Part shown: positions 17,557 through 35,944 of the stretch, piece after piece
How the letters are laid out: each line of letters begins with the position of its first letter
Position numbering within the stretch: position 1 is the stretch's first letter
Assembly (NCBI GenBank): GCA_031701365.1
Contig: GCA_031701365.1_4118.1
Direction: 5' to 3' (one strand)
Length of the DNA stretch: 64,000 bases
DNA from: Escherichia coli
Lineage (GTDB): Bacteria; Pseudomonadota; Gammaproteobacteria; Enterobacterales; Enterobacteriaceae
Made by a program: the position numbers and the translations under genes
Notes under the pieces: generated by a model
Told to the model about the DNA's origin: nothing
What the model saw: only the letters and a program-made list of their open reading frames with translations
The model's database searches: none

Positions 17557-17584
17557 TTGCAAACTATGTTTAAAGGCGTATAAT
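17557..17584 (+). promoter_or_regulatory. sigma70-like early promoter
   Basis: TTGCAA-16-TATAAT, A-rich upstream; leader hairpin 17597-17619. Confidence 0.65.
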
Positions 17585-17639
17585 GTTTTACATCGAGAGC
17601 GGGAACTCTTCCCGCTACACTTTAAGAGAGATTAATACG

Positions 17640-18002
17640 ATGGCGACTCAAATCACTAAAATCATGCTTAACCTGGTAAACTTCCGCGAAGAGATGAAAG
17701 GTCTTCCGGCTGAAACTGTAAAAATTCACATTGCAGCTTATCGGGAACTTATTGCAATGTTACCGCTTAAGCGTGAACAATACGCCGCTACTTTGATGCT
17801 TGATTCAATGATCCATGTAATGATCTCAAATGATTTGACGATGGTTTATCAGTACATGGGCGAAAATTTCGCGGTGAGTAGTAAGCCAGTACCAGGGATG
17901 GCAACTACTGAGGAATTGCACGGTTTAAATTTAAAACAAGATGCATGGGATAATATGCATCGTTTCCTGGTATGGGCTGACAGTGGCAAAATTTACAAAT
18001 AA
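17640..18002 (+). CDS. hypothetical early protein
   Basis: 120 aa from MATQITK; ORF-track start 17583 lies inside the promoter. Confidence 0.65.
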   Translation: MATQITKIMLNLVNFREEMKGLPAETVKIHIAAYRELIAMLPLKREQYAATLMLDSMIHVMISNDLTMVYQYMGENFAVSSKPVPGMATTEELHGLNLKQDAWDNMHRFLVWADSGKIYK

Positions 18003-18016
18003 GTTTAATAAAGTAC

Positions 18017-18044
18017 TTGCATACTAAGTTAAAACAAGTATAAT
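18017..18044 (+). promoter_or_regulatory. sigma70-like early promoter
   Basis: TTGCAT-16-TATAAT; leader hairpin GGTGGGGAATAGTCCCCCAC. Confidence 0.65.
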
Positions 18045-18096
18045 ACTTTCTATCAGGTGGGGAATAGTCCCCCACTATAATTAAGAGATTAATTTT

Positions 18097-18330
18097 ATGA
18101 GTACTATTTTAACTGTTTCTCAATCCGTTGCACTGACTGACCTATTAAACGCTTTAAGCCGTTGCACTGAGGTTGGCTTGTTTGATGTGGTAGACGTTGC
18201 ACCGGACGTTATTAATCATTTTTGTGATGCGATGGAAGAATGTAAGGAAGATGATCGCCGTTTGATGCAGGTGACATTTGAGGAAGTACAGCCAGGTGAG
18301 ATCAAAGGTTTACCAGTACTGAAAAAATAG
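18097..18330 (+). CDS. hypothetical early protein
   Basis: 77 aa; promoter, hairpin and SD upstream. Confidence 0.65.
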   Translation: MSTILTVSQSVALTDLLNALSRCTEVGLFDVVDVAPDVINHFCDAMEECKEDDRRLMQVTFEEVQPGEIKGLPVLKK

Positions 18331-18333
18331 TAC

Positions 18334-18361
18334 TTGCAAACTAAGTTTAAAAGCGTATAAT
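18334..18361 (+). promoter_or_regulatory. sigma70-like early promoter
   Basis: TTGCAA-16-TATAAT; leader hairpin 18374-18392. Confidence 0.65.
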
Positions 18362-18412
18362 ACTTTACATCAGGTGGGGAATAGTTCCCCACTATATAAG
18401 AGGATTTAAAAA

Positions 18413-18652
18413 ATGGCTAAATCAAAAATGTTCTTAGGTCACAAAAACAAAACTCAATGGAATGTAAGCCTTTGGATTAATAACGATGAGGGATTGTATC
18501 GGTTGGCCCTGGACTTTATTGCCGCCAATACTAATCGCAATGATGCGGCCCGTCATATGATGCTATTTTTAGAACAGACTGGACAAGATAAAACACCGGA
18601 CGGATTCAAATATAGCACTACTGCGATCCGTGCGGCGATGGTTGGAATGTAA
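18413..18652 (+). CDS. hypothetical early protein (paralog of 20453-20692)
   Basis: 79 aa; shared motifs HKNKTxWNVSLWINN and TPDGFKYSTTAIRAAMVGM. Confidence 0.7.
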   Translation: MAKSKMFLGHKNKTQWNVSLWINNDEGLYRLALDFIAANTNRNDAARHMMLFLEQTGQDKTPDGFKYSTTAIRAAMVGM

Positions 18653-18664
18653 TAGAATTTATTT

Positions 18665-18701
18665 AAAGTACTATCATTTTTTTGCGATAGTACTTTATAA
18701 T
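18665..18701 (+). promoter_or_regulatory. promoter-like element with palindrome
   Basis: inverted repeat AAAGTACTATC...GATAGTACTTT immediately before TATAAT; no clear -35. Confidence 0.4.
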
Positions 18702-18738
18702 AGTGTTTTATTCATACACCAACGATAAGGGCAACAGC

Positions 18739-19005
18739 ATGAATATTAAGTATTTTGCGACGCGTGAACAAGCTCGGATCGCCGCTCGCCAGGACGGGGC
18801 AACGTTTAAAGATATGGGTGCGGGATCGGCAAGTGGTGAACGTTGGGCCATTGTAAAGCGTAGTACCGCCAGATCATTACAGTACTGGTTAGCGGCCTTA
18901 AAAAGTCCCGATAGTGTATCGCGTCGAGTGGTAGAAATAAAGCTCGACCGAAAGGGCAACCGCGTGACCGTGTACCGTACTAAAAAGATTGCAGTACTTG
19001 AATAA
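18739..19005 (+). CDS. hypothetical early protein (paralog of 31049-31444)
   Basis: start placed at MNIKYFATREQARIAAR; shared FATREQAR, FKDMG, RKGNRVTVY. Confidence 0.6.
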   Translation: MNIKYFATREQARIAARQDGATFKDMGAGSASGERWAIVKRSTARSLQYWLAALKSPDSVSRRVVEIKLDRKGNRVTVYRTKKIAVLE

Positions 19006-19012
19006 AAAGTAC

Positions 19013-19040
19013 TTGCAAACTAAGTTTAAAAGCGTATAAT
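19013..19040 (+). promoter_or_regulatory. sigma70-like early promoter
   Basis: TTGCAA-16-TATAAT; leader hairpin GCGGGAATAGTTCCCGC. Confidence 0.65.
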
Positions 19041-19092
19041 GTTTTACATCGAGAGCGGGAATAGTTCCCGCCTATAACCTGGAGTAATAAAA

Positions 19093-19323
19093 ATGACTAA
19101 TATGTATATGACTGAAGTTAAAACCGTAAAAGATACTACCACTAATAAAACTACTTACTTACAGCGGATCTGTGGTGTATGGCAACGTATCAGCAAATCA
19201 AAGTACTTTAAATTAACATCATATGCAAACCGTTCTGATTCATTCAGTACTGAAATAAAAGGTAATAAAGTACACCAATACGGCACTTATTATTATTATA
19301 GCCTGGACGCGATTGCAGTCTAA
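19093..19323 (+). CDS. hypothetical early protein
   Basis: 76 aa; promoter and leader upstream. Confidence 0.6.
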   Translation: MTNMYMTEVKTVKDTTTNKTTYLQRICGVWQRISKSKYFKLTSYANRSDSFSTEIKGNKVHQYGTYYYYSLDAIAV

Positions 19324-34304: not shown

Positions 34305-34311
34305 AAACTAT

Positions 34312-34339
34312 TTGACAGTACTACAAGATAATGTATAAT
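34312..34339 (+). promoter_or_regulatory. sigma70-like early promoter
   Basis: TTGACA-16-TATAAT; leader hairpin GCGGGGGAATAGTTCTCCCGC. Confidence 0.65.
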
Positions 34340-34392
34340 GTTTTACATAGAGCGGGGGAATAGTTCTCCCGCACCTTTAGGAGTAAAACATT

Positions 34393-34593
34393 ATGTCAAT
34401 CGCTAACGAATTGGTTGCAGTACTGAATGAAGCAAAAGCCAACTGCATCGATGTACAGATCAAAGAGCTTGGCAATGGCTTGATCGGCTGTACATGTTCA
34501 GTTCAAACGGCTACCGATTATCGGGAAGTGGAATCACTCGAATCACTGGTACGGTATATTAAAATCCTGGTAGAAGATTGGAGAATCATCTAA
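34393..34593 (+). CDS. hypothetical early protein
   Basis: 66 aa; SD TAGGAGT. Confidence 0.6.
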   Translation: MSIANELVAVLNEAKANCIDVQIKELGNGLIGCTCSVQTATDYREVESLESLVRYIKILVEDWRII

Positions 34594-34603
34594 CAAAAAA
34601 GAA

Positions 34604-34636
34604 TAAAAAAAGGAGTTGACTTCGGTCCGCTCCTTT
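34604..34636 (+). terminator. terminator hairpin with embedded promoter
   Basis: AAAGGAGTTGAC-TTCG-GTCCGCTCCTTT with A-run before; TTGACT-17-TACTAT overlaps. Confidence 0.5.
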
Positions 34637-34766
34637 AGTACTATATACGCATAGACAAAAACTAGCCCACAGGGTGCAGAGAAGTATCTGTAAGATAGTT
34701 AATAACGGTGAGTAACTATCTGCTGGTGGATGTAATTCCAGTACTCAAAACTATTTCAAAAAAGTA

Positions 34767-34795
34767 TTGACAAAGTATAGCAGTACTGCAATAAT
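34767..34795 (+). promoter_or_regulatory. sigma70-like promoter
   Basis: TTGACA-17-AATAAT; leader hairpin GGGCGGCAATGGTGCGACGGCCC. Confidence 0.5.
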
Positions 34796-34848
34796 GTATC
34801 TCGTAGGGCGGCAATGGTGCGACGGCCCACAAAGTTAGGAGCTTCATC

Positions 34849-35175
34849 ATGAGTACTTCAATCGCTATCGTTAAAGCTTTCATCCGTACCAATTTCGACC
34901 GCATTACTGTTGATGGTAATGATCGGGAAGTAGAATACTCTTTCATTGTTGCACAAACCGCAAACGGTGCACGCTATATCTTAAACGATAGTGAAGCTAA
35001 CCACTACTTCTATAATAAAGGATTACACTACATCCCTAGCGAAGTAGTCTACACTAAGATGAATAAGCTGGTAGACAAGATTAACGCTAAAGGTACTATC
35101 GATTTACAGTACTGGACCGAAACAGATCCAGAATACGGATCACATCGTTACCTGAATCCAGGTATTAAAATGTAA
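34849..35175 (+). CDS. hypothetical early protein
   Basis: 108 aa; SD TAGGAGC. Confidence 0.6.
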   Translation: MSTSIAIVKAFIRTNFDRITVDGNDREVEYSFIVAQTANGARYILNDSEANHYFYNKGLHYIPSEVVYTKMNKLVDKINAKGTIDLQYWTETDPEYGSHRYLNPGIKM

Positions 35176-35182
35176 AAAGTAC

Positions 35183-35210
35183 TTGCATAGTACTTAGAAT
35201 CAAGTATAAT
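35183..35210 (+). promoter_or_regulatory. sigma70-like early promoter
   Basis: TTGCAT-16-TATAAT; leader hairpin GAGAGGGGGAAATGGTTCTCCCTC. Confidence 0.65.
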
Positions 35211-35264
35211 GTTTTACATAGAGAGGGGGAAATGGTTCTCCCTCCTAAATTAAGGAGTTTTATC

Positions 35265-35666
35265 ATGACCTTCTCAATCACTTCCTTCGCTGACGTTTTA
35301 GTACTGGCTCGGACTTTTGGTAAAGATGCACTGGAGTACGCTGTAAGTAATGGCACTCTCCAACCGGAACAATGCCGCATCATTGGAAACTGTAAACGTT
35401 GGGCGGTATCCAATACTATTGCACTAGAAAACTTCAACGATGGTAACAATGAGTATTCAGTTGATGCAGTATTCGAAGCCGTTGATCTTGGCGGTATCTA
35501 TAACACTAACCTAAATGATGTGCGTATCGTTCGCACGGGGTTCGGTGCTTATGATGTATCTATCCGTGAAGCTATGAACACCGGATACATTAGTAAGGAC
35601 TTACTTGCTCACATCATGCAGCTATGGACGGAACGTAACGAAGCACGCACTATCTTAGGACTATAA
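35265..35666 (+). CDS. hypothetical early protein
   Basis: start placed at MTFSITSFADV; SD AAGGAGT. Confidence 0.6.
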   Translation: MTFSITSFADVLVLARTFGKDALEYAVSNGTLQPEQCRIIGNCKRWAVSNTIALENFNDGNNEYSVDAVFEAVDLGGIYNTNLNDVRIVRTGFGAYDVSIREAMNTGYISKDLLAHIMQLWTERNEARTILGL

Positions 35667-35690
35667 GCATTACACATCACCAAACATCAT

Positions 35691-35710
35691 AGGCCGCTCT
35701 CTAGCGGCCT
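35691..35710 (+). terminator. terminator-like hairpin
   Basis: AGGCCGC-TCTCTA-GCGGCCT; no clear U-tract. Confidence 0.4.
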
Positions 35711-35734
35711 TAACTATATCAGGAGGGCATACAT

Positions 35735-35944
35735 ATGTTCTATACAGTATACAGCGTTCTAGGTACGATTGCTGGCGTACATGATAACGTCGATGATGCT
35801 ATGCGTACAGTACTAACACAAGTCCCCCTCAAGCCTAAGACTGTTAAGCAGATGACAGCACGACTAACCAGGGCGGGCGATGGCGTGGAAGTATGGCAGG
35901 ACTACGGGGATACACAGATAATCGTTAGCGTAACGAAGGATTAA
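35735..35944 (+). CDS. hypothetical protein
   Basis: 69 aa; SD AGGAGGG. Confidence 0.55.
   Translation: MFYTVYSVLGTIAGVHDNVDDAMRTVLTQVPLKPKTVKQMTARLTRAGDGVEVWQDYGDTQIIVSVTKD

Follow-up and report, generated by a model that had tools for sequence, protein, structure and literature searches.

The window analysed here, a 64,000-nucleotide (nt) stretch of DNA recorded under Escherichia coli (assembly GCA_031701365.1), contains between positions 17557 and 35944 a run of early genes, 22 of whose promoters are joined to a GC-rich stem-loop and a short leader in a recurring unit, hereafter the class-A cassette. The window derives from a jumbo coliphage of the 121Q/PBECO4 type. The best matches of the region are in the genus Asteriusvirus, among the E. 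coli jumbo myophages grouped as 121Q/PBECO4/G17, with identities of 89-98%; the identity to ECO103 4-12-1 is 95%, in a mosaic alignment of multiple pieces. The homologous stretch in phage vB_Ec-M-J falls within an annotated 21.5-kb direct terminal repeat, which is consistent with an early region at the genome end. The early genes of the region are nearly all annotated as hypothetical in the relatives.

The 22 class-A promoters share one layout, which consists of a -35 element, a -10 element, the start region (T)TTACAT(C/G/A), a GC-rich hairpin, a Shine-Dalgarno (SD) sequence, and an ATG. The spacer between -35 and -10 is 16 nt (17 nt in one cassette), and the stem starts 11.8 ± 1.4 nt past the -10. 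The stem is 7-10 bp long, and its loop has 3-5 nt (7 nt in one cassette). The SD-linked ATG follows 19.6 ± 1.8 nt after the end of the stem and 51.4 ± 2.5 nt after the -10. The DNA upstream of the -35 is AT-rich and reads aaaaAGTAC. The intergenic gaps are about 80-95 nt and are occupied by the cassette, a unit of ~85 bp. Predicted minimum free energies of the hairpins range from -10.6 to -15 kcal/mol, and the z-scores against shuffled sequences range from -1.2 to -4.4 in the five leaders tested. The stem sequences differ among the cassettes (e.g., GCGGGAA, GGTGGGGAA, and GGGGGAG), as do those of the loops (ATGG, ATGA, TAG, TGG, CGG, ACGG, CTC, ATATC, and others). A hairpin-only covariance model, run over all 64 kb on both strands with the filters off, gave strong matches solely at the class-A leaders of the + strand; weaker matches came from a copy without a promoter at 20709, from true terminators, and from hairpins that form part of other promoters. 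At gathering thresholds Rfam gave no match, with three chance-level matches at E<1, and a tRNA search of the window returned nothing relevant.

All class-A cassettes lie on the + strand. The first (17557-17642) has the -35 TTGCAA, the -10 TATAAT, a hairpin at 17598-17616 (AGCGGGAA ctc TTCCCGCT), the SD, and the ATG at 17640. It is followed by the cassettes at 18017-18099 (hairpin 18056-18076, GGTGGGG..CCCCACT, in which a single T-to-C change widens the loop; ATG 18097) and 18334-18415 (hairpin 18373-18393, GGTGGGGAA tag TTCCCCACT, z -2.9; ATG 18413), which are the left and right partners of a one-gene indel, respectively, and by those at 19013-19095 (hairpin 19055-19071, GCGGGAA tag TTCCCGC; ATG 19093) and 20375-20455 (hairpin 20414-20436, AGGCGGGGAA tgg TTCCCCGCTT; ATG 20453). 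The cassettes at 21264-21344, 21732-21809, and 22049-22130 have hairpins at 21304-21323, 21768-21787, and 22090-22108 and ATGs at 21342, 21807, and 22128, respectively. Two G.U pairs are present in the hairpin of the cassette at 23361-23446 (hairpin 23401-23422; ATG 23444), and the next four cassettes occupy 23681-23761 (hairpin 23721-23740; ATG 23759), 25266-25347 (hairpin 25304-25323; ATG 25345), 25591-25671 (hairpin 25631-25650; ATG 25669), and 26189-26270 (hairpin 26230-26248; ATG 26268). The z-score of -4.4 belongs to the cassette at 26624-26706 (hairpin 26664-26683; ATG 26704). Further downstream are the cassettes at 28747-28824 (hairpin 28786-28804; ATG 28822), 29368-29447 (hairpin 29408-29427; ATG 29445), 30542-30628 (hairpin 30584-30602; ATG 30626), 33122-33205 (hairpin 33162-33180; ATG 33203), and 33671-33749 (hairpin 33709-33727, GGGGGAG atatc CTCCCCC; ATG 33747), together with three whose hairpins contain one G.U pair each, at 32815-32899 (hairpin 32856-32875; ATG 32897), 34312-34395 (hairpin 34352-34372; ATG 34393), and 35183-35267 (hairpin 35223-35244; ATG 35265).

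At six sites (20414-20436, 21304-21323, 23721-23740, 25631-25650, 32856-32875, and 35223-35244, all on the + strand), an ATG in the loop or at its edge follows an SD-like GGGGAG of the stem and is in frame with the downstream gene without an intervening stop codon. Longest-open-reading-frame callers and naive SD-based callers place the gene start at this loop ATG, in agreement with the remark in the first-pass annotation of this DNA, made from the sequence alone, that open reading frame (ORF) calls often begin inside the hairpin. The loop ATG is probably not used as a start codon because, in the predicted fold, it is paired, and its spacing from the SD-like sequence is merely 2-4 nt.

Hairpins without a promoter of their own also stand before genes, in four examples, among them the following three of the + strand. 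One is at 20712-20731 (GGCGGGGA ttgg TTCCCGCC; z -2.7) in the unit 20712-20752, with 18 nt to the ATG at 20750 and only a weak TTGGAA-18-GATAAT. The intercistronic one at 24750-24769 (-11.9 kcal/mol; unit 24750-24790) is also separated by 18 nt from its ATG at 24788, and the one at 35691-35710 (AGGCCGCT ctct AGCGGCCT; unit 35691-35737) lies 24 nt before the ATG at 35735. The equivalent of the 24750-24769 hairpin is annotated in the record of phage G17 (MK327931) as an ARNOLD terminator; in that record the label ARNOLD 'putative transcriptional terminator' is carried both by a promoterless hairpin before a ribosome-binding site (2482-2499) and by a leader hairpin behind a consensus promoter (6647-6666). 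In 297 kb of related early regions, an SD-linked ATG is found 15-24 nt downstream of 67 of the 68 unique promoter-linked hairpins, and 16 of 31 promoterless GC-rich hairpins with a nearby start fall within the same 15-24 nt bin. The basic unit is thus modular and consists of a hairpin, 20 nt, and an ATG.

The density of promoters in the region is far above chance. With at most one mismatch to TTGACA/TTGCAA-16/17-TATAAT, the + strand of 17500-36000 contains 33 promoters, whereas 100 dinucleotide shuffles contain 0.7 on average and never more than 4; the - strand of the same interval contains 4, and the remaining 45.5 kb of the window contains 7 on the + strand and 4 on the - strand. Looser rules give about 39 on the + strand. 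The core of the first-pass annotation therefore holds, whereas its statement that each of about 35 near-consensus promoters is followed by the hairpin is too broad: 22 of the ~39 have it, and about 17 have other leaders (7 none, 3 a ~95-nt leader and then a second promoter, ~6 elements of the ORF-less CCCANNGGGTGC type, and 1 an odd hairpin). The single literal stem it had given for all of them, GGGGAGAA-N4-TTCTCCCC, occurs at only 7 sites when up to 3 mismatches are allowed.

The palindrome AGTACT, which is integrated in the promoters (aaAGTACTTGCAA, cAGTACTGTATAAT) and is also frequent within genes, is by far the most enriched palindromic hexamer of the window (253 copies against 21.6 expected, 11.7-fold), and CAGTACTG occurs in 57 copies against 0.7 expected. 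AGTACT is densest at 16-36 kb and has no copy in 36-40 kb and 44-48 kb; these two 4-kb bins suggest DNA of a different origin. The motif is common to phage RaK2, and no description of it in jumbo phages was found in the literature.

The conservation of the hairpin is that of a structure. A covariance-model search of the 297 kb of related early regions gave 87 matches, 68 of them distinct. In the resulting alignment, which was fitted to the model and is therefore biased towards structure, 97.2% of the cells pair, a share that drops to 58-79% if the 3' partners are shifted out of register. Both sides vary in five of the eight stem pairs (65 cells), and the observed values were attained in none of 500 shuffles; a MAFFT alignment of whole leaders was out of structural register and was excluded from the pair counts. 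Further evidence, including the variable loop length, is independent of this fitted alignment. The third pair from the loop is G-C, G.U, or A-U in 34, 12, and 20 sequences, respectively. When both are scored as mismatches, G.T outnumbers A.C by 15 to 5 (p=0.04, among copies related by descent), which points to folding of the sense strand. Orthologous genes, moreover, are preceded by different stems in different phages. Four stem types precede the orthologs of gene 26704, among them GGGGAGAA/TTCTCCCC, GGGAAGT/ACTTCCC, and GCGGC/GCCGC, depending on the phage. Gene 21807 has three stem types, its orthologs bearing GGCGGGGAA/TTCCCGCC or AGCGGGAA/TTCCCGCT in place of the stem of the window, and gene 17640 has AGCGGGAA/TTCCCGCT in the window and a paired ACGGGGG/CTCCCGT in the 121Q ortholog. 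At the same position, still other stems (GGGGATACA/TGTATCCC, GGGAATGAA/TTCATTCCC, and GGGGGAA-ACATC-TTCCCCC) are present in Klebsiella phage RaK2 and in an uncultured contig of 109 kb. The stem-loop is thus under selection as a fold of the single sense strand, most likely as RNA. As a transcribed, strand-specific element common to more than 20 leaders, the hairpin of the first-pass annotation is supported by the covariation that had been proposed there as a check, by the G.U pairs and variable loops, and by the differing stems ahead of orthologs.

The stems also have a strict polarity. G-C pairs outnumber C-G pairs by 308 to 20 and A-T pairs outnumber T-A pairs by 172 to 10, with a purine-rich 5' arm and a pyrimidine-rich 3' arm, and the base of the stem is almost invariably GGGG...CCCC. 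This polarity indicates that sequence counts besides structure. Selection acting on the initial transcribed sequence, to ease escape from near-consensus promoters, may also underlie the order of purines before pyrimidines, and the C-rich arm would in that case mask an SD-like G-tract; studies of the initial transcribed sequence of the T5 N25 promoter reportedly provide the ground for such a reading.

The cassettes behave as repeated elements that are independent of the genes they precede, as indicated by their pairwise identity (mean 73%, up to 89%), which exceeds the 56% background of the adjacent coding sequence determined with the same aligner. The cassettes at 32815 and 35183, for example, are 89% identical, and their genes are unrelated. 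Hairpin-less cassettes precede some orthologs of genes 23444 (three orthologs), 23759, and 18413/20453, which suggests that the hairpin modulates expression and is not essential to a given gene. When breakpoints were defined as the ends of colinear BLAST chains between the window and 121Q or UE-S1, 12 of 19 (p about 2e-7) and 11 of 22 (p about 1e-5), respectively, fell within class-A cassettes, which span 12% of the region used for this test. At 18017/18334, two cassettes with the same stem flank an additional 77-residue gene in the window (the indel relative to 121Q and UE-S1), and 121Q has a single chimeric cassette at this place, the upstream flank of which is that of the left copy and the part from the -35 to the gene that of the right copy. 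By analogy, this chimera corresponds to the pattern drawn for deletion or insertion mediated by promoter-early stem-loops (PeSLs), which are known from the T4-like phages RB49/phi1, T4/PST, and KVP40/nt-1 (Arbiol et al. 2010, PMC2839356; Comeau et al. 2014, PMC4122927). A BLAST query with one cassette returned 47 phage records, most of them Asteriusvirus, together with RaK2-type phages and a few rV5-like phages. In one of the latter, phage A73 (Vequintavirinae, 142 kb), the same cassettes are accompanied by six non-colinear early-gene segments that are 74-90% identical. To judge from these comparisons, the cassettes are exchangeable between genes and appear to mark the points at which early genes are swapped between phages.

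The promoters with other leaders include a composite at 19573-19753 on the + strand that is not of the hairpin type, in which a promoter and a conserved leader of ~95 nt (ACATCAGGACGGGGAAC...CTCCCCTGATAAAATAG) continue directly into a second consensus promoter at 19691 and then an ATG. Sister copies of this leader start at 22525 and 30228 on the same strand (the three spans are 19573-19700, 22525-22680, and 30228-30355). The rV5-like phage A73 also has this leader (90% conserved), the consensus structure of which is weak. Strong promoters of the ORF-less CCCANNGGGTGC family are located at 19354, 26056, 27739, 30099, 32692, and 34617 on the + strand and at 21698, 19526, and 17276 on the - strand, some of them forming convergent pairs, with a further motif copy at 16993-17004 on the - strand. 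An invariant CCCA-NN-GGGTGC is found ~30 nt past each promoter, and the motif has 10 copies (against 0.03 expected), all in 17-35 kb. Conserved members of the family are present in Klebsiella phage RaK2 and the uncultured contig; the predicted fold of the elements is weak (z -0.3 to -0.7), and they could be small RNAs or promoter-primed origins. Hairpins of 12 bp (AAAGGGATTGAC-TCCG-GTCAGTCCCTTT) that hold the -35 TTGACT are present on the + strand at 26049-26076, 30092-30119, and 32685-32712, where a gene run ends and a CCCANNGGGTGC element begins. In the composite of terminator and promoter at 30085-30215 (+ strand), for instance, the -35 TTGACT lies in the 5' arm of such a hairpin and drives an ORF-less CCCANNGGGTGC element.

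Among 10 early proteins scanned against Pfam, matches were obtained only for a DksA/TraR-type C4 zinc-finger protein (28066-28323, + strand; E 5e-11) and a GNAT acetyltransferase (28387-28743, + strand; E 4e-9), for both of which host-takeover functions are plausible. The first cassette is preceded by ~1.9 kb of non-coding DNA (15700-17550), which contains tandem ACGGCTAA repeats (about 16680-16790), divergent promoters, CCCANNGGGTGC copies, and the short direct repeats agttcccct / tatatagaaag at 17460-17525. The corresponding gene-free gap of 121Q matches this stretch.

We consider it reasonably probable that the class-A units act as portable, PeSL-type cassettes for the expression of early genes. 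In order, a unit comprises an AT-rich upstream element with AGTACT, a near-consensus sigma-70 promoter, the conserved start region, the stem-loop, a short A/U-rich spacer, the SD, and the ATG of a small, mostly orphan gene. The promoter would be read by the host RNA polymerase, and the stem-loop, G-rich and then C-rich, would be transcribed at about +6 to +25. The hairpin may then punctuate the transcripts, stabilising and insulating each message: for read-through transcripts it could be a barrier to exonucleases or processing, and for the transcript of its own promoter it would be a structured 5' untranslated region (UTR), possibly with a weak attenuating effect on read-through. The conserved cassette may at the same time offer a patch of homology for the insertion, deletion, and swapping of early genes, including between unrelated coliphage families. 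For the stem itself, mRNA stabilisation or punctuation is a serious possibility that stops short of being probable, and no single biochemical role reaches further than that; attenuation and factor binding are each unlikely, and effects on promoter escape or the initial transcribed sequence, a recombination signal at the DNA level, and other roles are each improbable.

Several points weigh against the portable-cassette reading. The start sites, RNA ends, and half-lives on which it draws are all predicted. The hairpin appears dispensable for individual genes, given the hairpin-less orthologs, and the excess of G.T over A.C is modest. The strict polarity of the stems could indicate a factor, effects of the initial transcribed sequence, or concerted evolution. 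The link between breakpoints and cassettes is partly forced, because most of the intergenic DNA consists of cassettes and events that break genes would be selected against; the enrichment thus shows modules bounded by cassettes and is no proof that cassettes catalyse exchange. Models in which the hairpin stabilises the transcript through the 5'-end pathway are, in addition, weakened by the reported ability of RNase E to bypass stem-loops (PMC9943677).

This last point bears on the classical 5'-terminal stabiliser, in which the hairpin would obstruct both RppH and RNase E, the latter at its 5'-monophosphate sensor, so that the early mRNA would live longer. More than 20 transcripts have a stable, self-contained hairpin close to their predicted start, and the initiation region is not occluded, which speaks for such a stabiliser. 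With a start 6-8 nt after the -10, however, an unpaired 5' tail of about 5-7 nt is predicted (3-7 nt for a start at the 8th nt past the -10 and 5-9 nt for one at the 6th), and the hairpin is therefore predicted not to be at the extreme 5' end, where the first-pass annotation had placed it. Work from 1992 by Emory, Bouvet, and Belasco is said to show that a 5' hairpin protects only if the unpaired stretch before it is at most about 2-4 nt. In its scanning from the 5' end, RNase E reportedly bypasses simple orthogonal stem-loops (PMC9943677), and on this ground the hairpin as a scanning obstacle was also set aside. The tail rule and the bypass together weaken simple 5'-end protection, and the hairpin-20 nt-ATG module is also found at promoterless intercistronic sites. 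The classical stabiliser is accordingly unlikely, and the protection from 5'-end-dependent decay suggested earlier is doubtful. The translational control suggested with it is not predicted to operate by SD occlusion: the mean unpaired probability of the initiation region (-15 to +3) is 0.66 in the full leader and 0.67 with the hairpin removed, so the ribosome site is predicted to be left open, and an SD-sequestering switch was rejected. Removal of the 5' arm, which would free the 3' arm (UUCUCCCC) for pairing with the SD, changes the value only from 0.66 to 0.62, and an anti-SD switch of this kind was likewise rejected.

The hairpin could instead limit polymerases arriving from upstream, so that its own promoter dominates each gene, a role that has been suggested for the stem-loops of PeSLs. 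In favour of such a read-through attenuator or terminator are the reduced lacZ expression caused by the PeSL211/210 stem-loop in a reporter (PMC2839356) and the terminator label of the G17 record. None of the 22 hairpins, however, is followed by a T-run (the tails read ACTAA, GGTAA, or GATAA) or was flagged in a terminator scan, while canonical T-run terminators are present in the region at 21568, 22445, 23180, and 31468; an intrinsic (rho-independent) terminator was rejected on the lack of T-runs. A hairpin downstream of its own promoter would, furthermore, attenuate that promoter as well, and we regard this role as quite unlikely. The hairpin might also be recognised by a phage or host factor. 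Candidates are proteins that bind RNA, endoribonucleases specific for hairpins, antiterminators like N, and DNA enzymes specific for structure; through such a factor, early genes could be shut off in a coordinated way, RNA could be processed, or cassettes could recombine at defined sites. Recognition of this kind would fit the strong polarity, the near-invariant GGGG...CCCC base, and the A-U closing pairs conserved across genera, and the authors of the PeSL work speculated on a DNA-binding recombination protein (PMC2839356). On the other hand, the loops are conserved in neither length nor sequence, upper stems are freely replaced, and no candidate protein is apparent among the 10 early proteins, of which only the DksA/TraR zinc finger and the GNAT protein were matched. 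No boxA-like partner or shared flanking box was seen near the hairpins, and with loops this variable an antitermination site of the nut/boxB type was rejected. A factor site is therefore improbable, although it is kept as a rival; of the RNA-binding protein proposed in the first-pass annotation, the loop-specific version is unlikely because the loops are not conserved.

A double-stranded operator, with a dimeric repressor that recognises the palindrome at +6 to +25 and so silences the early promoters, would explain inverted repeats directly downstream of many co-regulated promoters. The spacing of the half-sites varies, however, with loops of 3, 4, 5, and 7 nt, and variation over 3-7 nt would not be tolerable for a dimeric binder of duplex DNA. 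The half-sites also change compensatorily and via G.T, which is asymmetric in a duplex, and entirely different stems stand ahead of orthologous genes. The operator was rejected on the spacing and on the compensatory and G.T changes, and we hold it to be very improbable indeed. A further-reaching proposal, which we also rate as improbable, is that the GGGG...CCCC hairpin is a dedicated cis-signal recognised as a folded single strand by a phage factor, and that the arrays form an integron-like system of self-expressing cassettes across Asteriusvirus, RaK2-like, and rV5-like phages. The factor might be an enzyme that processes RNA, or else a recombinase or nuclease with specificity for structure, and early genes, probably for host takeover or anti-defence, would, if this were true, be moved by it between unrelated coliphage families.

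Recognition of the cassette corrects start codons and transcription-unit maps across the phage genus. If the portable-cassette reading is true, modular shuffling of the PeSL type reaches jumbo phages and exchange between families, and provides a route for early-gene turnover. More than 60 natural stem variants at one fixed position, together with some hairpin-less orthologs, form a ready mutational series on hairpins that precede a ribosome site, and the region is a source of dozens of compact, very strong promoter/5'-UTR units.

Several known systems resemble parts of this arrangement. The dense, very strong host-type promoters that serve small pre-early and early genes in the long terminal repeat of phage T5 are similar in setting; the T5 leaders are not known to share a hairpin or to be homologous to the window. 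The hp1-type 5' stabiliser of ompA is also a stable hairpin of the 5' UTR upstream of an open ribosome site, but the tail predicted here exceeds the reported protective length, and the module of the window also occurs inside operons. Intercistronic stabilisers and sites of selective RNA processing and stabilisation, such as REP (repetitive extragenic palindromic)-like elements and the RNase III sites of phage T7, are hairpins between tandem cistrons that could define or protect RNA ends. Stems of 7-10 bp, as found here, are too short for RNase III, and most copies are fused to a promoter. Like the nut/boxB sites of lambda, the hairpins are short GC stem-loops a few tens of nt past early promoters, but they have no conserved loop, no boxA was seen, and there are more than 20 copies rather than two. 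The attC sites of integrons also accompany small orphan genes, each with an imperfect single-strand hairpin, in arrays that vary by gain or loss of whole cassettes. Here, however, no integrase or attI was identified and each cassette brings its own promoter, and the exchange of cassettes is compatible with ordinary homologous recombination.

The closest resemblance is to the PeSLs, which combine a GGGG...CCCC stem-loop containing G-T pairs with an association with ORFans and recombination at the motif, and which mediate indels and mini-circles (PMC2839356; PMC4122927). The attenuation or termination in a reporter and the PeSL x PeSL mini-circles come from experiments on RB49/phi1 only (PMC2839356). 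PeSLs and the present cassettes are both intergenic composites of ~100 bp with AT-rich DNA, a strong sigma-70 promoter, and a stable G-tract/C-tract stem-loop with G-T pairs, and they extend from the stop codon of the gene before to the SD and start codon of the gene behind. Both are present in many copies ahead of small orphan early genes (22 in 18 kb in the window), and in both the boundaries of indels and replacements between close relatives fall in the motif. The 12-bp hairpins at 26049, 30092, and 32685 resemble, in addition, the PeSL subclass in which the stem-loop lies over the promoter. The cassettes of the window have no sequence homology to PeSLs, the BLAST query with one cassette having found only the 47 records named above, and a search of the literature on Asteriusvirus, 121Q, PBECO4, RaK2, CBB, and rV5 found no description of a promoter-hairpin element. 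PeSLs belong to T4-like myoviruses, whereas the present region lies in the terminal repeat of a jumbo phage of the RaK2/121Q type. In PeSLs the stem-loop may lie between or over the -35 and the -10, ahead of the -35, or shortly before the start site, and in RB49 it is mostly between or over the two boxes, whereas here it is downstream of the predicted start in 22 of 22 cassettes, at fixed distances to the -10 and the ATG. The feature is real, highly regular, and statistically overwhelming, and it is largely explained by the published PeSL concept. As far as the sequences allow a comparison, the cassettes of the window have every feature by which PeSLs are recognised and differ in stem position and phage lineage; what appears to be new is the occurrence of PeSL-type cassettes in another lineage of phages, with a distinct hairpin that is predicted to be always transcribed.

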